Below are positions 13,201 to 55,400 of a stretch of 64,000 bases of DNA, one piece after another. The position numbers were made by a program, and so were the translations under genes. The stretch is from Pocillopora damicornis (Eukaryota), in contig NW_020844063.1 in NCBI RefSeq assembly GCF_003704095.1, forward strand, positions 62,001-126,000. The letters run 5' to 3'. The first letter of the stretch is position 1. Every line of letters starts with the position of its first letter. Under the pieces are notes generated by a model. The model was not told where the DNA came from. It ran no database searches and worked only from the letters and a program-made list of their open reading frames with translations.

Positions 13201-14059
13201 TTATTTCTTAGAATTCAAAGAAAAAGAAGAAAGAATCCTAATTTATAATGCGTATTTAAAGATAATATCTTGTAAAAGTTCTGGAAAAACAGAGGGAATA
13301 GAGTAAAACTTCAATTGAGTAGCACAGTTTAGCCGTGAATTCACAGTTTGTGAATTAACGACAAAAGAGATTTTGCCTTTGGGTTTCATTTAGGGGTTCT
13401 AGAGGATCTTTTCAGGTATCTTAACCTGGGATGGGCTTGAAAACTTGACTGTTTATGTACGGCATTTATAACGTAAACTTTAGAACATGCCGACCGCCTT
13501 ATCGAAGGCTAACTCTTGTGTAGAGGAGGGAGGGGGGGTAGAGGAAGGGAGGTGGAGGGGGAAGAAGTCATCAGTAACATGTTAATTTCGTTGCCTGTTT
13601 AAAAAGTTGAATGATGACGAATGATGACGAATGATGGGCACTCTCATGAGAAGTTTTGTTCGTTTCACTCTAGTTTGTGGATATTTTTTTTGCTGTGACA
13701 AATTGAGTTTCGGATGATAACGGTATGATAATGGCATGGAAAGAAAAATAATACAATCAATATTTTTTCATTGCTTTTTTATTAACCCATTAAGCGCGCT
13801 AAACTTTTTCCCCAATATCCTTACAATTTATAAACCAGAGAGTAGCTAGACTACTGTTTTGTATTATGATATTTCCCTTTTGTTTCCGCGTACGTTCCAG
13901 TTCTGTGGTTAATTCACTTTTGAGTTGCATAACTCTGGCCCTTGATCTGTGAAAGATAATATATATGCGACTTGAGTTTCGCATTTTGAAAAGTTGTAAA
14001 CTGCCTACATTGTACTTGAAGTCTTGAACAAACGTGAATAGCTACTTTTGGTCATGCAG

Positions 14060-14212
14060 GGTAATTTCGTTTATAAACTGAGTTGACGACGTAAATTGTC
14101 CACCGTTAGGAGTTTTTAAGCTGACTTTTCGAGCGTTAGCCCTTCGTCAGAAATTGATGACGAAGGGCTAACACTCCCTCACCGACGCAGCACTAAGGTC
14201 TCTTTAGAAACT
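14060..14212. mobile_element. Penelope-like terminal-repeat remnant with inverted, degenerate hammerhead motifs
   Basis: Minus strand 14150-14119 reads CTGACGAAGGGCTAACGCTCGAAAAGTCAGC. Opposed plus copy TGACGAAGGGCTAACACTCCCTCACCGACGCAGCAC...TCTTTAGAAACT. Confidence 0.7.
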
Positions 14213-41500: not shown

Positions 41501-44500
41501 GACAGGAGAACAGGGCATAAGTAGTTATATTCTCACATGCAAGCGTGAATACTCGATAAATGCTAAGAAACAAATCAGCGTATTAGTGTTAATAGGATGT
41601 ACAGTTACCTGAGTCACAACCAACAAACTCAAGCCTCATTGAAATGTATGCATGCCATTCCACCGGGTGAACACGAAAAATACGGGCGATGATTGGTTCG
41701 TCCAGCTTGGTTTCCGCGACAGTCTGATAGTCTCTATTGGCATAGTATTCCTAGAAAGAAAAAAAAAACACATTCAGCATACTTACAAACATTTTTTGCT
41801 TATTTAACAGATATTGTTGGGTTGTTGTTAGACCCATAGCGGTATCTTTACTCTTTTTTTTTTTTTACAAAAAAGATCATTCCATCCAAAACTATACGTG
41901 ACATTTATTTTTGGATGTACATAAAGTTCGCGATAAGAAAGAAAAGTTAGTTACATAGGTTTCTTGTTTTAAATCTACACGTGGAATCTATATTTAGACT
42001 CAGTTTGTGATTTTAGGCAACGCTCAGTGATTGGTCTAGAAAGCTCGCGTCAAACCAATAAGATACAAAGTTTACTACAAACAACGACTTTTACTCCAGT
42101 TTGTCTCAGTGATTTATTTGGTTTGGGTTTACCACAGGAAGCACTTAGTGTTCTCTGCAATGAGTGAAGGCTCCCAGCTCGTAAATAGCTCAAAATTATC
42201 TCTATTGGTGGAATTTTAAAGCTCAAATTGTTCAGAGCAGAAAATAATTTCACTTTATGAATTTTTCTATGAAAACTATTATATGTTTTTACCCGCGGAA
42301 CATTGTAAGGATGGTGAAGTTGAAATGAGAAATATCCTCCATCAAGGCTGTAAGACACTATAAACTTGGTCACCCATTGTGCAGCGTTATGGCGTCCTTG
42401 GGTCAAAATCGTCGTTATTTTGACAATCTTTCCAAAATCCACTTGGAACCACTGGCCCTTGTCGTTGCGCTTAGCAATATAAGTGGTCTGGTGGTTGAGC
42501 CTTCCTTTATTTGCTGCATAGGATGCGCTATACTGCAAATATAAAAAACGTCAAGTACTGACTTAGTTCTGCGATGTAGCCTCTAGGACAAGCTTGTTTT
42601 CAAAAAGTGCAGTATCGAAACTTTCTAAGGGGTGAATAAGCACCCTTCATTTAGATTCTTCTTGAGAAAAACAGCTCATGGTCATGAAACTCAATTTTGC
42701 AGCAGAAATTACCTTGATCAAGTTACGAGATACAGTGTGTATTGAGGTGCGACCTTCAGATGGGAAAACCGTGACGGGACATGCCGTGACACGTCGCGTT
42801 ACCGTGACCGTGACATGCTGGTATTGCGTGACGCGCAATACCAGCATGTTAATAAGAAAGAAGGGTCTGCTCTAAAAGCTGTGGATTAATCGAAATAAGC
42901 GAGTTCGGAAATTAATAAGCAAGCCCATTGATCTATTCTCCAGTTTTGATCGTGAAACAACCTTTATAAATAACCAATATGTATTGAAAAAAGGCCACTC
43001 TATTTAAAGTAAATTAATTCATGATTATCACTACGAAAAGGCTTCTTTTCGAAGCCACATAATTCGTCGAGATGAGTGAGTGTGTGACTGAGTGAGCGGT
43101 AAACATTTAAGTTATCTCCTTTTGTGATTTCAAGCTTATAGCCACTAGCGCATCATGTTTTCAGTTCTTTCCGTGACATTACAGAAGACAGCAGTAGACG
43201 ATGAACATTACACAATCATTTCAGGACTGCACGTGACTAGAGACAACACTTTTCCTTGCAGAAATGTCTTGACAGATACATCATGAAACTCATAGGAAAA
43301 GATTTTTTTTCTTGAAATAATTACCAACGCGTAATTTAACTCAAACTTTTCATTGCAGAAACATCTCAATAGGTATGATCTGCACATCAAGGAAGCTTTG
43401 AAGAAAATATTTTTTGTTTGAAAGGAGAGCATTTTACCGTTTGAATCAGTGACTTATACCCTAAAGAGCCGCTTAATTTGCGAAGTGAGCAAGCTGCGAG
43501 ATTTACAGGGTGACTCTATTCAATGGAATGATAGGAAACAGTCGAACGGTAGAACGGTGGAATGGCGGAACCGAGAAATATCTTTAAACGCGGAATGCTT
43601 TGTTGTATGAGACAAAAATCGTGCAAAAATGTATTTGCAATAAAGTAATAATATTAGTTATAATTAGGAAGCAGAAGTACTTTCATAAATACCTCACTAG
43701 CAGACGATAATGCGGAGTTTGGAATTTTTCCATCTTCCAATCCCATCTTATCCATGCAATCTTATTGAATAAAAAGACGGGAAAGGGATGAATAAGGTTG
43801 ACGCAAAGTATAATCAGAGATTAAGGGCAGTTTATTTTAATGAATTCAAAGATATTTGTTGACTGTTTCTACCAATTGTAAACTTGTACCTCAAAATCAT
43901 TGTAACAGACATCACAGTACAGTTCTTCAATTGTTTGAACAAGTATTACTAGTAAATAAAGTTGATCTGGAGCTTCGGTCTGTGTCTGACTTATAGGTTT
44001 CTAGTTCTTGATGACCGCAAAATGATAAGAAAAAAGATCGAGTTAAATCAGACAGTTTCAATATGCTCATTCTTTTTTATTTCTCTACTTACACTTTGAA
44101 TTAGGCTTATATCAAGTAAATAAAACTCACAGCTCACTAATTTTTCCCCTTCACTTCTCTGTAAGTCTATTGGGAAAACTGGTGTTGTATAAGATACTGC
44201 ATTCATACCCATGCAATTTTTTTTTATTTGAGAGACACAATTGAATATACTTTACTCTCCGAACATACCTCCAGCAGCAAAACCTGAAAAATAATTCGAA
44301 ATTATAGTAAATCGACTGATATTCATTACAAATACTGCATAAAAATTTTGGCCTGACTGAATCAAAATCGTCTCTTAGAATAAAAGATATTTAAAGTCTA
44401 ATTCACGTTGTTTGCAAGATGCAATGTCATCTTTAGGAAAAGTTTGAGGAATTCCGGAACGATATTCTGGATATTCAGGGGAGGCGTGCATGAGTAATTA

Positions 44501-45748
44501 AGATGAGACCCGCTGAAAGTCACTTTGTAATAACTAGTTAATAATAGTAATAGAAATAAAAATGGAAATAATGTTTAAGAATTTAAGAATGGACATTCTA
44601 CTAGGTGGCTCTTCTTTTCCTCTGTTTCCAGATCGAATTGGAATTTGAAATTTTGGATTTAGTGGAAAACCGGAGGATCCAGAGGAAGAACCTCGAAGCA
44701 AGGACAAAAACCAACAACAAACTCAACCCACACACGTGACACCAAGTCCGGGAGTGATTGAACCCAGGCCACAGTGGTGGGAGGCGAGCGCTCTCACCGC
44801 TGTGCCATTCCCCACTCCCCAGCATAAGTGTGATAAACAGCCACTTTAATTGAACCTGCGCACAGCATGAATACAAAACAAATAATTTTTGGTTCAATTT
44901 AAGCATTTATAACGACTTTGGTGAAACTCATTGCTTATTTCGATATGAATTTTTAAAAATGGGCAGATTCATAAAATAAAGCTTATTTGAAGAACTGAGA
45001 CAGAAAATATCTGACTTATCTGCCAGCCTAGACCAATCAATCAGCTAGTCATCTGAGGTATTTATATGTCTCGCTCTAGAACAAGTGGGGAATTACAGAA
45101 TTCTAAACTAACCAAAAATTGAAAGTCAAAATGATCGTAACTACTTCAAAATGATAAGCTTTTGCGTCAAAAATAGACGATTCGTGATATCAGAATAACA
45201 AGTGTTATTCTGTGTTCTGTTCTGAAACTAGTGTTCTGAAACTAGACGGGAAGAGTGCCAAATGAACTTAAAAATATTTCAGCTTTCGGCCCTTGAAAAA
45301 AAAATTAAAAGCTTTATTTTAAAAAGATTTAAAGCTGGACATTGTGAATAGATCAGCGCGCAGTAACACTGGTTTTCGATTTGAATTAGGGGTAGCTCTC
45401 ATAAAGGTAGCTCCAAACCAAACAGTGGCTCTGATACTGAAATGGTACTGATACTGAACGATAAAACCTCGACGAAACACGTGAAAGGCGAGGCGACGAG
45501 ACTACTCAAATCAGGCTATCTCCTGACGTTTTCTTTTAATTACTGTTAAAGATAGAAAGAGAGACTATGTACCCGACGGACGTAACCATAATCAGTTTAT
45601 CCTATAGATTAATAGCTTACCAGTAATTTTATCTGTCACTCCCAGGAGTCAGGGAAGCTGCCTCCCACCAAATAGGAATAAAAAAACATGACTTACCTAC
45701 TTCAAGAAATAGTCTGAGCAAGATTACAAATTTCACTCCAGCGCCCAT
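14585..45748 (-). CDS. Gene A: large secreted coadhesin-like protein (signal peptide, >=14 F5/8 type C domains, 7 TSP1, 2 WSC-like domains)
   Basis: Exons (GT/AG, frame-consistent): signal peptide 45748-45697 and 44283-44269. F5/8C: #1 43760-43693,42532-42293,41750-41609; #2 41478-41150,40507-40363; #3 40059-39919,38764-38574,38092-37951; #4 37323-36971,36439-36298; #5 35568-35428,35160-34967,34352-34208; #6 33291-32939,32495-32354; #7 31779-31451,31044-30903; #8 30200-(gap)-29861; #9 29197-28866,28461-28320; #10 27765-27419,27124-26983; #11 26612-26275,25440-25296; #12 24909-24584,23618-23478; #13 22888-22557,22102-21961; #14 21343-21000,20908-20767. TSP1: 20351-20175,19938-19761,19103-18933,18486-18310,17762-17586,17203-17015,16628-16458. 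WSC-like: 16024-15731,14886-14585 (TAG). Motifs C..LGM..G.IP, QW.QVD, ATQGR, LR.E.YGC; DGG..W..W..CS.TCGGG..R.R.C. Confidence 0.88.
17458..17561. mobile_element. Palindromic MITE (GATCAATGTCAG...CTGACATTGATC)
   Basis: Terminal inverted repeats. Partial copy at 36588-36690. Confidence 0.65.
18012..18150 (+). mobile_element. Degenerate tRNA-derived SINE
   Basis: GCTCAGTTGATAGA ... TTCGAATCCCGTCAAAGC...TTTTTCAGGCTT. Confidence 0.55.
23943..24206. mobile_element. Non-autonomous TTAA-targeting element with GG...CC termini (Kolobok-like)
   Basis: TTAA-GGTGATTCCT ... AGGAATCACC-TTAA. Confidence 0.7.
25485..25650. repeat. Degenerate (GAAT)n tract
   Basis: Repeated atga/gaat units. Also at 26055-26075. 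Confidence 0.6.
28110..28207. repeat. 24-bp minisatellite built from (TCAG)n
   Basis: gtcagtcagtcagtcagtcacttc, about 4 copies. (TTCA)n at 28025-28052. Confidence 0.85.
29494..29785. other. Assembly gap (292 N)
   Basis: N run. Confidence 1.
29972..30071. other. Assembly gap (100 N, probably an unsized placeholder) interrupting F5/8C domain 8
   Basis: N run of exactly 100 with coding sequence on both sides. Confidence 1.
30390..30630 (-). mobile_element. Degenerate tRNA-derived SINE
   Basis: Minus strand GGTTAGTTCACG...GCGCCGGACTACCGTGCAAGAGGTCAAGGG, a tRNA-like head with a decayed B box. Confidence 0.4.
31858..32230. mobile_element. MITE with C-run/G-run inverted ends
   Basis: caattcaaagcttcaacatctccccc...ccccgagcatttga versus tcaaatgcctgtgggttgccggggggatattg...tttgattgg. 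Confidence 0.55.
33541..33744 (+). mobile_element. piggyBac-like MITE (TTAA CCCTTTAA ... GGG TTAA)
   Basis: TTAA TSD, TIR CCCTTTAACTCCCA / TGGGAGTTAAGGGG. Related copies elsewhere in the window. Confidence 0.8.
38785..38960. repeat. Fold-back (palindromic) element in intron
   Basis: ccatggaaattg..cgattttcattc..ttgcgatgcatcaa versus ttgatgcatcgcaa..gaatgaaaatcg..caatttcaatgg. Confidence 0.6.
39574..39825 (+). mobile_element. Abundant MITE-like repeat
   Basis: aaacctcgcaccactttctcaaacaatcag...tttggttttagttttgcgac...gcgctcta. Related pieces at 10095-10175 and 42000-42150. Confidence 0.5.
44593..44820 (-). mobile_element. tRNA-derived SINE
   Basis: Minus strand: A box TGGCACAGCGGTGAGAGCG, B box GGGTTCAATCAC, then a non-tRNA body (GGGTTGAGTTTGTTGTTGG...TTCCAATTCGATCTGGAA). 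Confidence 0.75.
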
Positions 45749-46566
45749 TTTGAGTTTACAACGAAATGTTACAACAGTGGTCGCCTCAAGGAAAACTCTA
45801 TGGTATCTCAGACTTAACGTAAACTTGTAATGACTTAAACGTGTAATGGAACAAAATGGGACTCTAACTTGATGAGAACCAAAGAAAATTCACGGAATAC
45901 ATCAAGACGTGTCACTTTCGGTTAAACGAGCCAATCAGAGTCTACATAGAAAAAAGTCGAATGGTAGTCATTTACGACTGAAAATGTTTTAAGTGACCAT
46001 CTATGTGGCCATGGTATCAGGGTTGTTGATTAAACTAGGAAACAATTGCTTTTTTTCTCCTTTAAAATTTGTTTACACAATTCCGCTGTGTTTGAATTAG
46101 TTATTCCTTTGAACATTGAAAAAGAGTAATATTCCTTGCACTGTAACAAATTAAATGAAGAAAAAAAGGTGTTACTAAAATATGTTTATCATAAGTGTAA
46201 TTCAGAACTTAAAATTTTACACATTATCTTCAAACAGTGAATTCAATTTTACAGCAATATTCTCAAGTAATATTGTAATAGTAAACACGTCTCTTACATC
46301 TAGACGCTCAAATATTTGTGTCTTTTTTAAGTGGTACATAACTATTTGTTTTTTCTGAACAACCGTTCGCATGAAAGTTGAAAATGGTCGGAGTATCTTA
46401 ACTAGTAAACAGAAACATCAATTAAATAGTATCATTACCCTTAAAATACCCATGTTTCCTTTTTTTTAACATTTTGAACGATTTTAGGTTGTTTACGCTT
46501 GATTCAAAGGAAATTAAAAGACCCCCACACTCAAACTGTGAAAAGATCCCTCAATAGGAAAATGAC

Positions 46567-47370
46567 ATTTACAACATAAATATAAGCACGTTCTCTTGCA
46601 GTTCTGATCGCAATTAATTGTGCTTATTTACTTTGATTTGAAAGACAATGGAAAACGTATCGGAGGTTAGCTTTAGGTTAGGAGGTTAGCTTTGCCCCCC
46701 AGATTATGATAATGTCGAACTTTGAACATTGCACTTTTTAAATGAAAGCGCTGTATTTCTGATACGTTCATTTCCGTGAAGTTGAAACTAAGTCTTCGTC
46801 CCTTTGTCATTTTGTTACTTTTAAATTGCCAAAATTGAAGGACCGTTGAAGAAGTTTTGTTTCGCACTTTGCCGCATGTACTATTGTAAACATAGTATAA
46901 TCACTATATGCAAATAACAATTTTGTTTGTATATCTTGGAACTGCTATATGCAATGCCAGTAAGATAATCTTTATCTATCTTAAACATATCTCGTATCAA
47001 TAAAATTTACAACATAAATGTAAGCACGTTTTCCTGCGGCCCTGATAACATTTAGTAATGTTTTATTATCTTGTTTTAAAGAATAATGAAAAAGGTATGG
47101 GAGGTTAGCTCAGCCCCCTAGGTTATGATAATGAATAACTTCGAACAGGTTACTTTTTAAATGAAAGCGCGTATACTATTGTCTTATACGAAGTCTTCAT
47201 CCCTTTGCCATTTTGTTACTGTTAAACTGTCAAAATTGAAGGGCCATACAGAAATGTTTTGTTTCAAGTTTTTTTTCAATGTTTTTTGCAGCCACGCACA
47301 CTATTGTCAACACAGTATAATTACTTCATGCAATGACAATTCTATTTGTCAATCTTTGAACTGCTATATT
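46567..47370. repeat. Diverged tandem duplication, 2 x ~420-440 bp
   Basis: atttacaacataaat.taagcacgtt at 46567 and 47005; ggaggttagct, aaatgaaagcgc, cattttgttact and aactgctatat each occur twice in the same order. Confidence 0.8.
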
Positions 47371-47583
47371 TCTCTAACACCAGGTGATACTTAGAACCCG
47401 TGCAAAACGTTTTTCATGTACGAGCTGTTTGTCTAAACACACACCGTACCAAATATTGGTGGGTTTGTAACCACTCAAAGCGTTAGAAGTACAGAAATTC
47501 GAAGGTGATCTTCCGTCCTCATCAAATTTAGTTTTGCAAGACTCATGCAAGTGATATTTTAAGTTGTCCTTTAATGGTATGTT

Positions 47584-47782
47584 GGGTAATTGATTAAATT
47601 GACGATTCGATTGAGGCCCCGCGCTACTGTATTTCTTTTTCTGTAACAAGCTTTCGCCGATCTACGACATCGTCATTCGTCGTCATTCCCTGACGATGCC
47701 GTAGATCGGCGAAAGCTTGGAACAGTAAACGAAATACAGTAGTGCAAGGCCTCAATCGAATCGTCAATTCAATCAATTACTC
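47584..47782. repeat. ~200-bp inverted repeat (~90-bp arms), probable inverted Penelope-like terminal-repeat pair
   Basis: gggtaattgattaaattgacgattcgattgaggcc...aagctttcgccgatctacgacatcgtca pairs with tgacgatgccgtagatcggcgaaagctt...ggcctcaatcgaatcgtcaattcaatcaattactc. Confidence 0.85.
47686..47722 (+). ncRNA. Minimal type I hammerhead ribozyme (Penelope-type)
   Basis: UUCC-CUGACGA-U-GCCG(UAGAU)CGGC-GAAA-GC-UU/GGAA: intact core boxes, 4-bp helix II, 4-bp helix I (UUCC/GGAA), palindromic AAGCUU helix III. Predicted cleavage after 47718. Confidence 0.72.
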
Positions 47783-49049
47783 ATACAGTTGAAATGAGCT
47801 CAATGTGCCGAATGTGCTTTCCTTTCCCATTTTGCTTGGCGGCGCATCAAAGCGGCCGTCCACGTCAAGAATTCACAAAACCACAAGATTTGGCGGTCAG
47901 ATCACAGTCAGATACAGAAAACTTGGCAACAGAAAAAATGCTAGTGAGTTAGGCCATATACTCGGTTTACATGTGAAAATTGTCCTTATAATGTTAGATA
48001 AACGTCTTCCAAAGCTCTCGGTGTGGAGCGAAATTCTTATATCGGTTACGGTGCGTAAATTATATATTTATCATATGGCTTAGGTTTGTGGCCGATGTAA
48101 CGCGCGCTCTGATTTGCTGAGTGAGATCAACGCAGGGTATTAAGCTCCCGTAAAATCATGGGCTGATTACGGATTTTGCGAAAAGGTAAGAACACAGAAT
48201 TTCTTTCAAGGATTGCGACTTTTTCTTAGAGGAAAACCGTCAGTGTCAACAACGTAATTTTTCGTCGATTGATATGGGAAGATGTTAACCTTGGGAACTA
48301 CAGCAAAGGTTTTAATGATATCCACAGAAAATAGGCTTAATGATGACAAAACCTAACAGGCAAACTTGTTTCCAACGATGAGGTTCAAATGGTGAATCCT
48401 TCTTCAAAAATTCCTTGAACGACTTTTTCTTTAAAAATTTAATATTTTATATTTCGTTAAGTAAAAATGCTGACGCCAACTCGCAAAAATAAGTGTGACG
48501 TTTGAAAAAATATTCAGGGACTGTATTCCGTAGCGTTTACATTTTCATTCACCAAGAGACCTTACATACTTGGGCCAGTGGTTTGAGGGAGACTTCTGTC
48601 TTTTCTGTATGCACTGACGGAGTTTTGCCCTGAGAATCGGACAAAATTTCTCTTAATAAGTTGTGACACCGCTACACTGAAATAAATTTACGCTTTCGAG
48701 AGCAATTTTTTTCTCGAAAATGCATTTGTCTTCCTGACGGAATGCTGAATAGTGCACCGACTTCATTTGCGTTGATAGACCGTGGATTTAAATCGATGAA
48801 TGAAAAAGTAAGCGCGCGCATCGCCGGATGTAAGGTAACGACTTCTGATTGCATGTATTTCCCTTTTCTTCGGAAAATGTTGTAAGCCAACACTTAGGAA
48901 GACGTTCATTCAATTCATATTTTTAGTTTGTACTTCGCGAATGGCTGGATGTGAATACCGTCCCCCACAGCATCAAAACTTCAGCATAACGTATGTTCCA
49001 GGTGGAACTTCACTATTTTGCCGTGGGGGTTTTCGTTCTCGGACCGCGC

Positions 49050-49325
49050 AAATTGTTTTGATTTTAAGTTGCTCATTTGCAGGGACGACCACGAAATGTA
49101 CACAGTTTTAAAACGCACGTGCTAAGCTATTGTTCAGGGCCCAGTTATACAAAGAGCGGATTACACTATCCAACGGATAAATCGCTATCTAGCGGATAAG
49201 TAATAACAAAACTTATAGCGTTATCCGCCGGATAGAGATTTATCCTGTGGATAGCGTTATCCGATCTTCTTTTGTTTTGCTACGTCCTCGTTGCCGTCGC
49301 CGTCTTGTTTTGCTAAAGTTCCCTC
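49050..49325. mobile_element. Nested insertion: GGATA/TATCC-rich MITE (49136-49265) inside an AGGGA...TCCCT element
   Basis: The flanks tttaaaacgcacgtgct... and tttgctacgtcctcgttgccg...ccct are nearly contiguous in the copy at 56844-57190. Confidence 0.6.
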
Positions 49326-49439
49326 TGACTTGCTGCTATTTTATGACCATTAGTGGCCAGAGAAATAAAGAAAAATAATTTTAAACTCGATTATATTTCT
49401 TATTATTTTGGTAACTAGCGCTTCTAAGAAGAACCTCTC

Positions 49440-50900
49440 ATCCTTCTTTGGGACCATGGTGTGGATCCTTAGGATACTTAAGTAAACGATCATCAACTCA
49501 ACTCCTTTCGCATGAAAGCCTTGGAAATCAATTAGCCACTGGTGGGGGGGGAGCCAATAAGGTGGTACATCTTGCTTTTTTTTTAATCGTCATGATAACG
49601 CAAAAGAAGTGGAAAATCTACCACAAATCTATGATAATCCGATGATGATGGCGCAGCGTAACTACGCCAAACGCTTCTCCTGTCAAATGACAGCGCAGTG
49701 TAGAGGTTTATAGCGATAGAAATAAGAGTGTTATAGCCAAGGACTGAGTAAAAGATTATCATTTCAAATACTTATGATCTTTACGTGGTAAGGAATATTT
49801 GAAAAAAACAATTTTAAACTTCATTATGTTTCAAATTGGTTGGTTAAATAGTGCACTCTAGAAGAACTTTTAATCTCACTTTAGGATTGCAGTGGGGATC
49901 ATTGGGATACTTATGAAAACGATCATCAACTCATGCAAATTCTTGTGATTAAAGATTGGTAAGAGAAATATGAGCAAAGAATCTTAAAATTGGTATAATC
50001 GCAAATCCACTTAGTAACCAACGAGGTACGGTGCGAAAGGTACTTAGCTCTCTCTTAAAGGTTGTGGCACGTACAGCTGGATACCTAAGAAGGCAAAGTG
50101 TTATCACTGAAGACTGAAATTCCCAAGATTATATCGTGCTGAGAGAAATAAGAGGGGAGAGTTTTAAATTTTATTACAACTCTAATTAATAATCAGCGCA
50201 GCATGAATGAAACCGCCTTGAAGTATTAGGACATTTCTTCACGATCAAGTCTGGATAACAAGTATAAATGTATAAAGGGTTTTTATTATAAAAACTTGAG
50301 ATTATAGGACGGTAAATAAAGTAAGAGAGAGGAATTTTACACCTTAAATATCTAGTTGATGAACAGTGGCAATGTAAGTTGAAAAAAAAAGAAAAACCGT
50401 CCACTGAGAGGCATTAGTATTCCTCTGTAGAATGGTGACCGAGGTGTCCAGTATAACGAAACGATTTGATTACAAATTCTTACGGATATACTGTGGTAAG
50501 TGAGATAAGAGAAAACATTTTTAACTCAGTTGATAATTGATATTGGCAGTGCAGCTTTCAAAAGATCGTCTACGAGGTACAATTGTGTGTATTGGAATTC
50601 CTCTCTATTTTCGTGGCATAGGTTATTAGGATAACCAAGTCAAAGATTATCATAACAAATTCCTATAAGATTATACAGTGGTAGGAGAAATGAGAAAAAA
50701 TAATTTAAAATTCAATTACATATCTACTTGTTTTTGATCACCAGTGCAACTTTAAAACCCCCCCAAAGGTCTCGGCATCCATATCATGCCTGGCTGCTAG
50801 GATAGCTGGAATAACTAATTAAAGTGACAGGTACTATTTCAAATACTTATGATTTTGGCGAGGTAAACGAAACCATAAATCATAACTTTGACCAGGGATG
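49440..50900 (+). repeat. Degenerate tandem array, ~180-bp period, ~8 units
   Basis: Motif aaat(a/t)c(t/c)ta(t)ga(t)...GGTAAG...gagaaa recurs near 49623, 49767, 49936, 50117, 50290, 50473, 50657 and 50840. Confidence 0.55.
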
Positions 50901-52443
50901 AACAATGTTAAAGGTTGGGGACGTTACTATAATCGTGGAGAAAAAGCTAGAAAAGGCGCGTGGTGGACGGCTGACGCCAAACAGGTTTTAATGTAAACAA
51001 TACTGTCGAGCAAGGAATTCTTTCGTAAGTACCGAAAAACTAAACTCATTAGTACTGAACGGAAGATACTCTTTAGCATGCATTAAGAAAGCTGATAACA
51101 CCATGGGTTGAAGCTGTTATAGTGCAATAGAGTTTCTACAGAGAGATAAAATGTATTGTTATGTTTGGAGTATTTAAAGTTCTCATGTCTTTATCGAGCT
51201 ATTTATATAACTGATAACAGTTATTTGTATGAGTTTTTATCTCTTTTGCACCAAAAAAATGTGCTAATTAGCCTATGCTTCTCGAGACTGACGGAAGTAC
51301 GGCTTGAGAGAGAAGCAGGCTCAAAATAAACGCCTTCTCTGTTTGCAAGAAGGAACCTTTTTTTCTCAGTACAATAGGCTCTAAATTTATCCGACTGACA
51401 AGCAGCGCTACAAATCTAGTGCCACCTGGCAATTGAGGATGGAAAATGGAGAGACGAGAAGGAACAATGTTAAAAAGCAAATCTTGGGGTATTACAATGA
51501 GGAAAGTTTTACATTTTTTGACTCCTTTGTAAGGTCAAAGTAATTCATCTTAAATCATAACAAGTGGAAAGCCTAGATACCAAGGTTAATTAGGTAGAGT
51601 TATGCAAAGTTTAATTTTGGCTGTTTCGGTCTATTTATGGTAGTGAATTGTCTAGTTTTAGCTTCCTTTCTTTATTTTCTACCTCAAACCAGAAAAATAT
51701 TTGCAGGTGATAATTTGGCGAGGCCGTTATTAAAAGTGGACTGAAAGCTTTAGGTCGTGAAATATTGCACGAAACAAAACTGCCCCTCTCTACTTTCACG
51801 GTATGTAGAACGTTGAAAAGAACTTGTACATCAGAGCGAGCTTGCAGCGTATTTTAATCTTGAGTTAATAACTTGTATGTTTTAGTCTTTCGAAAAGTTT
51901 TTGTATCTGCTCTGCTAGGCGAGTGTGTTTTGATAACAAGGTATTTTTTCTCCGCAGATAAGACAACCGCAATCTTCATAAAAAGCTGTCGTGCTTTCTG
52001 TCACCTGGTAGTAGAAAGTGAGAAAGGATAAAGTGAAAGTTATTTCATTGCGAGGCAAAGGTTACAAAGGATTTCCTGTTGAAACGCTTTTTCATTTACA
52101 TTCCAAAGAAGGTTAATATATGATTAACTCATACAAACAAAGGCAGAAAAAAAAGCTAAATCTCATTAAAGCTTTCTCTTAAAGTGTGAGCCTCTTCTGA
52201 AGAAAGTGTCGTTCATGATCACAGCTTTGGGTAATTGTGGCTTTCGAGGAATATTTTCCCATACTTAATTTTCCTGTATAATCTCTCAACAGGAATTTGT
52301 GCCCTTGGAATTGGGATGGTTGCCAATCTAAAACGGAAAAGCTTACAATAGGTACGTACGTAATCATGTGTTTAAATAAATCCGATTTCTTGCAATAAAA
52401 TTCGTGTTTTGCGCTGTCGTTGATCTGAACTCATTAACAAATC

Positions 52444-55400
52444 ATGGAAGTGCTAACCCTCGTAGCCGCTCTGCTTGCTTTGAGCATCACCCCTTACGGT
52501 GAGTGGAAATTGCAGTGTTAGTTTACCAAAAAGCTCCTTCACATATTTTCGGCAAAACCTGATCTTAATCAGGGTTTAAGACATACTGGAAATTTTCGAA
52601 CAAAGCTGGCTAGCACCCTTTTGTGGATAAAACTCTTTAGAGAAATAATGAAAACCTCACATTTCCGGAACAAAATAAAAAGAAGTGCATTTTTCATTGG
52701 AATAACAAAGTATGTCCCGTCGTTAACGGCCAAGTGAAGCTATCGTTTCGGTACGGAAAACCATCATTAAAGAGACAACCTGGCTACATTTTTGATACAT
52801 GTAACTTCGTTTTCTGAGTACACCTTTCTTCGGTATGTAATTAAGAGCTATACTATAAGGTGGAGACCTCGAACAGTGATGCTCTAAGGTAATTCTCTAA
52901 TTTTTCTCGTGGATTGGTTTTGGATGCGTTTCTTTCTTTTGAATTAATTCTTTTTTTACTCCAAACTTTTTTCCTAATTTTCCCAAACAGCCCACTCCGT
53001 GAAGCTCTTGTACGCCAACCGACATGACATAAGGATTATTTCAACAAATCAAAGTGACCAAAAGGAAACTACGATCGTGGACACCCTTGAGGATGCTATT
53101 GCGTTGGACTTTGACTATACGGAAGGATTGGTATTTTGGGCCGACGTTGGTCAGCAGAAAATCGAACGCGTTCGTATTTCACAAGAGAAGAGTGGGGAAA
53201 TCGAAGATGTCATTTCGTTTGGGTTAAAGAAGCCTGAGGGTTTAGCCGTAGATTGGGTAGGAAAAAAGTTGTATTGGACCGATTGTAGCGATTCTGACTG
53301 GGAAACGAACAGAATCGAAGTTGCAAATTTCAATGGATCAGATCGCAAAGTTCTTTTTTGGAAAGACTTGGATTTCCCCAGGGCTATTGCCGTGGATCCA
53401 TTAAAAGGGTACGTAAAACCTGGTTTCCTCATTAAAATGCCGTTCTAACAATAAATTTTCCAACAAATAACTCAATGAAACTAAATTTGAAACACAACGA
53501 ACGAACTACATTAGTCGGAACAAACACTATTGGACACAAACTTTCAAGAATCTTTCTCTTTGAAGAAGTCTATCGATCAAGATTTATCTCAGTTTATCCT
53601 TATTGGCAAACTGATGTCATCTGAAAGAGACGATAACAACATCAAAGGCATTTTACGCTTTTGATAAATGTCCAAAATTGGCAAAAGCACGATGAACTAT
53701 ATAAATCTTGCCAACTCAAAAATAGTTTTGGCGAATAATTTCCTAAATCAATCCTCAACCCTCTTAACATGGGTGGATCGTCACGCGTCGATTGGAGACA
53801 CACAAGCAACAAGCCAATTAAACTTCAGGATCATGTGGATATCATGCATATATCTGGCAATGATAATGCACAATGATAACATAATCTAAGTTTGATTTTT
53901 GTATCCCTTTGATTTTTTACTTTTATACTGAGAAAACAAGCACTCATAACATCACGTATGGAGCAGTTGGTTGAAAAAAACGCATTCTAAACCATATTCA
54001 ATTCCGCTGAACGTTGTATCCAAACGTTGGGTTTTGTGAACAAAGTCACGAAAGCTTGTAGCTAATTTTCTCTGGAAAGGCATCCATTCAGTTGTCATAA
54101 CTGCGGTCTAAGTTAGAATCCATTTAAAGAGGAATAGGCTTAGGGTGTTAGTAACATGGGTAGAACTTGTCAACAGTAGTCCTAAACTGGTTTCGTGGAG
54201 AAATCTTTATCCATTTTCCGTGCCATTGGCAAACTCCAGCCACGCACAAAAAAAAAGGGCACGACATCTAGAAAGAACTAGGATAATCTGCTGTAAAACG
54301 TGACCTACGGAAAATATCCTAATTTCCATTGCCCTAAAATCTGACATGAAATTTTCCTAATTATCTTGTTTTTTTAAATTCGTCGATCACGTAAGGAGTA
54401 GAAATACATGTACGTGCTATAGAATTGTGAGCAACTTATGCGCCCAAACTTTTTTTGCTCTTAGCGAGACTTTTCTCGCAAACATTTCTCCACATTTAAG
54501 TGAAATGCTTTTCATGCAGCCCCAAAATCTTAACGTTATTTTAAATACTTTTCATTAATTATGAGTTTGGAAGGAATTTCCTGAATTTCATGCTCATTTA
54601 GTCTATCAATGAGTCAATTCTAATTTTAAAGTAGCCCCAAAAAAAAAATACAGTGCTGGCAACAGCCAAGATATGTTTGATTGTAAAAGCTTTCAGCTAA
54701 CCCTCTTAGCACTCATCCTATTATTTAAGAGTTCTTCTGGCTTTCTGGTAAGCTGTTAAAACAGATTGGCCACCCCACTTGACCTGTTGAGATTTGAAAT
54801 AGCAATTGCCAGCGATTACAAGTGTCAGTAACTTGGATGCAAAACAGAACCTACATGGTCGCCGGGGATGATTTGGCAATTGTGAGATCTGTATCGAAAA
54901 AAGGGTGTGTAACTCAAAAACCACAATATCCGAAGTTTACAAAGGTGGTAAATCAAATTCCATCAAGATACGAAGAGACAATTTATCGAAAACTTGAAAT
55001 TATTATGCGACTACGTTTGTTGACCTATTAAGTCCTTGGAATCATCGGAAAGACCTACTGGAAGATAATTAGCATAGGTTTATTAGACATTCTTTCATAC
55101 CCCAGCATGCCAGGCGTCTACCAGAGGCTTAATTTTTTTTCCTATTGTTTTAGTCACACATTTCTTTATGCGTGTTTTTCTTTTTTGCATGGTTTCTCTT
55201 CATCATTTTTTACATTGTCTACTTTTTTATGTTTCTTTCCTAGCCCTTGCTCCATTATTTTTTGTCTTTTTGGGTTTTGAACAAACTTTCAGTTTGATAA
55301 ATAGTAACTATTTCAAATGAACGCCATTATTATTATTAAATTTTTTTTACGGCTAGGTATATGTTTTGGACAGACTGGGGAGAGAACCCCAAAATAGAGC

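Follow-up and report, generated by a model that had tools for sequence, protein, structure and literature searches.

A decayed head-to-head pair of truncated Penelope-like element ends carrying a minimal hammerhead motif in the coral Pocillopora damicornis

The window analysed here, a stretch of 64,000 nucleotides of the Pocillopora damicornis genome (RefSeq assembly GCF_003704095.1, contig NW_020844063.1, positions 62,001 to 126,000), contains a short inverted repeat lying between two divergent genes. The minus-strand gene encodes an F5/8 domain and has its first-exon ATG at 45748; the plus-strand gene encodes LDL-receptor-class-B repeats and has its ATG at 52444. An original prediction, made from the sequence of the window, had named these genes as coadhesin-like and LRP5/6: their divergent arrangement is correct, and the names are borne out to the level of the domains only. 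Other repeats populate the same interval. Degenerate tandem duplications with periods of about 420-440 nt and about 180 nt occupy 46561-47370 and 49371-50870, and a short repeat motif at 48067-48118 is also found at many places in DNA run X21. A palindromic repeat at 49093-49300 (arms 49152-49199 and 49221-49268) is matched by many RNA contigs with differing flanks and is a widely transcribed dispersed repeat.

A minimal type-I hammerhead motif can be read directly from the plus strand at 47686-47722, with the CUGANGA, GAAA and UH boxes in type-I order. Helix I is formed by TTCC (47686-47689) and GGAA (47719-47722), the core box CUGACGA occupies 47690-47696 and is followed by a single extra U after A9 (47697), and the 4-bp helix II, which includes the G10.1-C11.1 pair, joins GCCG (47698-47701) to CGGC (47707-47710). 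The GAAA box (47711-47714) runs into the palindrome AAGCUU (47713-47718) that represents the helix III region, and the predicted cut falls between 47718 and 47719, behind a CUU triplet. CUU is a weak cleavage triplet for hammerheads. The complete core announced by the original prediction is present in every box and helix. A covariance-model scan of 44000-53000 matched no Rfam hammerhead family at E<=10 (its weak miRNA matches were rejected as reflecting only the hairpin), and within the 64-kb window the bare core pattern does not exceed its chance frequency (7 found vs 5.3 expected); the case for a hammerhead therefore rests on family evidence. At the genome level the 29-nt motif has 72 matches with three mismatches or fewer, vs 0 for the reversed control. 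In 10 hand-picked family copies, 94 % of the helix cells are paired, and helix I has UA, CG or AU as its outer pair, with changes on both sides. Helix II is nearly invariant and thus uninformative on covariation and, since the 10 copies are related, the support from pairing is modest. We conclude that the motif is a real minimal hammerhead belonging to the element in which it lies, with cleavage as a prediction from its sequence.

That element is an insertion of about 220 bp (47557-47778) composed of two 5'-truncated pLTR ends placed head to head. The left arm (47583-47675, minus strand) is truncated at U4 (+1) of the hammerhead, the right and shorter arm (47684-47778, plus strand) begins 6 nt upstream of C3, and a short slippage-type duplication makes up the inversion junction between them (47676-47683), the 9-mer at 47670-47678 recurring at 47680-47688. 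As inverted repeats the arms extend over 93 nt (47583-47675 and 47691-47783) with 89 % complementarity, and the fold-back has a folding z of -21, equalled by none of 200 shuffles. The fold-back seen by the original prediction is confirmed; the insertion itself extends further, through a one-sided tail that had been missed. This tail (47557-47582, minus strand) is carried by the left arm only, which reaches 47557, whereas the right arm ends at about 47778; it matches the 3' extension of the family copies and appears to be the decayed start of a Penelope-like element (PLE) reading frame. In the left-arm hammerhead, helix II is altered at one position and the 3' strand of helix I at two. It also lacks C3, as originally noted; given the positions at which the two arms start and the slippage duplication between them, the missing C3 is the truncation junction and not a point mutation. 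A degenerate 16-nt target-site duplication (47541-47556 and 47779-47794) flanks the whole, with 12/16 identical positions, a score equalled or exceeded by 36 of 5000 random position pairs (empirical P about 0.007). The locus holds this single inverted pair and no head-to-tail hammerhead repeats.

The two arms are alike at only 72 of 81 sites, which makes this an old copy. When the 9 differences are polarised by eye against other copies of the same type, 5 belong to the left arm and 4 to the right one. The core of the right arm is perfect, a point against reading the locus as a relic; none of the 4 right-arm changes hits the 25 core bases compared, a result that is not significant (P about 0.23, hand calculation), and selection sparing the core was rejected on this ground. 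The copy is old, and its decay has not detectably spared the core. The insertion is also present in three further samples, taken from three studies, whose contigs each differ at 0-2 positions. The contigs of three DNA runs list no empty-site joint, with little power for single-arm alleles; run X21 covers repeat parts only, the flanks of the locus lying outside it. According to the original prediction, a polymorphic high-copy status, together with a lack of cleavage even in dimer constructs and of transcription across the site, would mark a neutral relic. The copy number is indeed high, and polymorphism is unsupported because the three samples carry the insertion and no empty site is listed.

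The element belongs to a multi-copy family, with at least 78 BLAST matches in its own genome in addition to the 72 motif matches, a copy number check that the original prediction had proposed. Five of the 72, the window included, are identical to the perfect 29-mer, which leaves four other such copies. The copies sort by eye into four sister types, A (that of the window), B (young), C and D, which have the ribozyme in common and differ in their flanks. Fragments of reading frames precede types B, C and D at a distance of about 150-170 nt upstream. One such frame (P0001) matches GIY-YIG (PF01541, E 1e-6), two loci (L111 and L129) carry reverse transcriptase (RT) motifs, and the RT-EN linker of the relatives contains a C-x4-C-x7-C motif. 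Type A is tied to coding sequence at L144, where an inverted tailed arm is followed by the end of a C-terminal ORF and then by a decayed hammerhead arm; the link of the window's own type is thus to a C-terminal fragment, not to a full RT and GIY-YIG frame. Scoring of 150 of 321 candidates gave 11 protein matches at E<=1e-20; all are partial or broken, and an intact parent, whether of the family or of the window's own type, is not among them. Three type-A arms (L138 and L139, G000:C3410) form part of a longer duplicated segment; two of these arms face each other head to head at a distance of 3 kb, and no PLE frame was detected in the sequence that separates them. In the tails of the four sister types (L003, L064, L116 and L122) one short peptide start is conserved, by eye, with mostly third-position changes, a bias that suggests that the reading frame starts in the tail.

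The fold-back recurs at many loci. In type B, exactly one arm is tailed in 12 of 13 two-arm loci (the thirteenth runs into a gap), target duplications of 12-15 nt are present in 14 of the 14 fold-backs tested, and the arms are 95-100 % alike in the 12 loci where both can be aligned; young junctions contain fillers resembling that of the window. Descriptions of PLE insertions already include inverted 5'-truncated copies, one-sided tails, duplications and palindromic head-to-head junctions, and complex EN+ insertions combine an inverted 5'-truncated pLTR, a one-sided tail of 30-40 bp and a target-site duplication (PMC3846280, PMC8557442). The window shares with them the head-to-head arms, the palindromic junction, the single tailed arm and the target duplication, and its relatives have the RT and C-terminal GIY-YIG domains; it differs in being reduced to about 220 bp with no coding part (PMC3846280, PMC8557442). 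The fold-back is thus a routine product of PLE insertion, with a layout that has been published, and the locus is a copy of a known kind.

The ribozyme also conforms to type. Minimal hammerheads reside in pLTRs and are widespread as single copies and as opposite-strand pairs (PMC4209133). Metazoan PLE hammerheads share with the window the boxes, the extra base past A9, the G10.1-C11.1 pair, the 4-bp helix I and the palindromic helix III region, whereas helix II has 4 bp here (5 with a U-G pair) vs 7-8 bp in the Schistosoma families, and the two motifs lie about 15 nt apart vs about 100-700 bp (PMC4209133). Animal non-LTR retrozymes resemble the locus in being non-coding, in having a type-I hammerhead and in their origin from a PLE pLTR; unlike them, it has neither a head-to-tail array nor a second same-strand ribozyme (bioRxiv 10.64898/2026.07.22.740005). 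With relatives downstream of RT/GIY-YIG frames and a matching pLTR layout, the original attribution of the motif to a Penelope-like terminus holds.

A route to this structure can be proposed by analogy with PAc, a Poseidon element of Anolis, in which both strands are nicked and the tail is set by two internal RT starts (PMC11167929). The endonuclease of the element would nick both target strands about 15 nt apart, and, with each nicked strand serving as primer, reverse transcription would begin at one or the other of two internal sites, so that one arm is long and tailed and the other short. Both cDNAs would traverse the uncleaved ribozyme up to the RNA 5' end, a few bases upstream of it, and end-joining with a small filler would fuse them. 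As in PAc, the two 3' ends are about 30-40 nt apart; unlike in PAc, the frame seems to start in the tail, not at helix II (PMC11167929). We consider it very probable that the locus is an old, non-coding, head-to-head pair of 5'-truncated PLE ends, tailed on one side and probably flanked by a target-site duplication. Its own hammerhead is predicted to be sequestered, and the pair is likely a neutral relic without a role for the flanking genes.

The first alternative is co-option: the intact arm would cleave, or define the 5' end of, upstream transcripts of the LRP5/6-like gene; alternatively, the hairpin would act as a conformational switch or yield small RNAs. The core is intact and lies in the orientation of this gene, about 4.7 kb before its ATG as originally stated (4.73 kb from the cut site), the insertion is present in three other samples, and some RNA-library contigs fall on the site. 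These contigs are short and of low depth and, like all 24 RNA runs listed, they are contigs from which strand, ends and level cannot be read. Against co-option, both genes have spliced first exons of their own far from the element, at 45695-45852 for the F5/8-domain gene (1.7 kb away) and at 52418-52497, with minor ones from 51452, for the LDL-receptor-class-B gene (at least 3.7 kb away); no splice joint connecting the element with either of them appears among the RNA contigs listed, which is not evidence of absence. Moreover, one RNA-library contig (run X18 record 18, depth 4, possibly DNA) spans the predicted cut with 0 differences, four other genomic copies have the identical 29-mer, and the CUU triplet is a poor one. 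In vitro, minimal hammerheads were not cleaved as monomers and showed low cleavage as dimers (PMC4209133), and the ribozyme of PAc needed the protein of the element (PMC11167929). With these remote first exons and no detectable sparing of the core, the proposed action on LRP5/6-like transcripts is not supported, and a regulatory role for the flanking genes finds no positive support; co-option as a whole appears very improbable.

Folding predictions bear on the hairpin itself. Helices I and II are predicted in the isolated 42-mer, the predicted probability of helix I is <=0.002 once the downstream flank is included, and in the full fold-back neither helix is predicted to form. The idea that a full-length transcript would sequester the ribozyme in a hairpin is therefore supported by modelling, but its extension to a conformational switch is not, since the same fold-back recurs at many loci as a routine insertion product. 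Co-folding of a dimer predicts a swapped helix II, not an extended helix III. Downstream bases complementary to the core, at 47761-47767 and in the tail of a type-B copy (L064), are predicted to make helix I less likely to form in types A and B; such pairing is possibly inhibitory.

A second alternative takes the fold-back for a self-propagating, non-autonomous unit, MITE-like or retrozyme-like, that is copied whole. Many loci do share the fold-back shape with its axis at the ribozyme. However, breakpoints, filler and duplication differ at each junction, so that the folds arose one by one, each at its own insertion; the two arms also differ from each other, only one being tailed, and a tandem array is absent at the locus. 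Whole-unit copying is already largely refuted and, like co-option, highly unlikely. Least credible of all is a fold-back made after insertion by hairpin-mediated inverted duplication of one stub: both arms have, by eye, several variants rare among other copies, but one template RNA explains these equally well, the target-site duplication flanks the entire two-arm unit, young copies are already two-armed, and a single-arm allele with the same target-site duplication is not listed in the DNA contigs, which have little power here.

In type B the ends of the arms pile up near the 5' edge of the ribozyme core. From 51 type-B arms sampled by a 3' anchor outside the ribozyme, 48 were counted after dropping two that abut gaps and one with an A-run insertion (starting at +17 by eye). 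Relative to C3, 26 of the 48 end at -7 to +3, where about 2 would be expected under a constant truncation rate; 6 lie elsewhere in +4 to +64 and 16 further upstream. As the arms of one insertion are not independent, the same result can be given by locus, 17 of 36 scorable type-B loci having an end in this interval. No arm (0/48) begins at the cut site (+27 to +31), and cleaved RNA was rejected as the insertion template on this account; the template here apparently is uncleaved RNA as in PAc, where cleavage is protein-assisted and uncleaved RNA is the main template (PMC11167929). A second hammerhead in the window (14050-14185, minus strand) belongs to an unrelated and far more abundant family, with 203 exact genome matches to a 29-nt 3' anchor, and shows a short fold-back at the 5' edge of its core. 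In the first 30 of these 203 matches, 29 arms stop short of -13 and 15 end at -9 to +2, positions that are approximate since the copies are diverged and local alignment under-extends. The available part of the PAc account does not describe a pile-up at the ribozyme edge (PMC11167929), and none was found in the literature searched outside subscription papers.

One explanation places the start of PLE RNA 4-8 nt before the hammerhead and about 30 nt past a TATA-like box in the pLTR, with priming in the tail copying the first 95-135 nt of this RNA, uncut; in our judgement this could well go either way. A promoter lies inside the pLTR in D. virilis (PMC2377424). In a scan with a TATA consensus, the best or joint-best site falls at -31 to -42 from C3 in 14 of 19 long copies, counted by hand; many of these sites score poorly (5-6 of 8) or tie with others, and among copies of the window's own type just 2 of 5 have one there. 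The unrelated family has weak TATA-like boxes about 30 nt upstream. As a promoter signal these boxes are suggestive only. The main rival attributes the pile-up to arrest of the reverse transcriptase at the ribozyme or at a ribozyme-protein structure. The intron of the D. virilis element ends at helix I (PMC4209133); a splice acceptor as the cause of the pile-up was rejected, as there is no AG directly before it in the five lineages examined.

Taken by itself, the locus is of little weight, being one decayed transposon remnant of a known type. The family statistics are relevant to a question that the literature consulted leaves open, namely the role of the hammerhead in PLEs and the way in which their inverted ends form. 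If RNA does start just upstream of the ribozyme, capped RNA 5' ends are predicted at -4 to -8, and the ribozyme would not cut the insertion template. A start at this position would also account for the abundance of solo and head-to-head minimal hammerheads in animal genomes.
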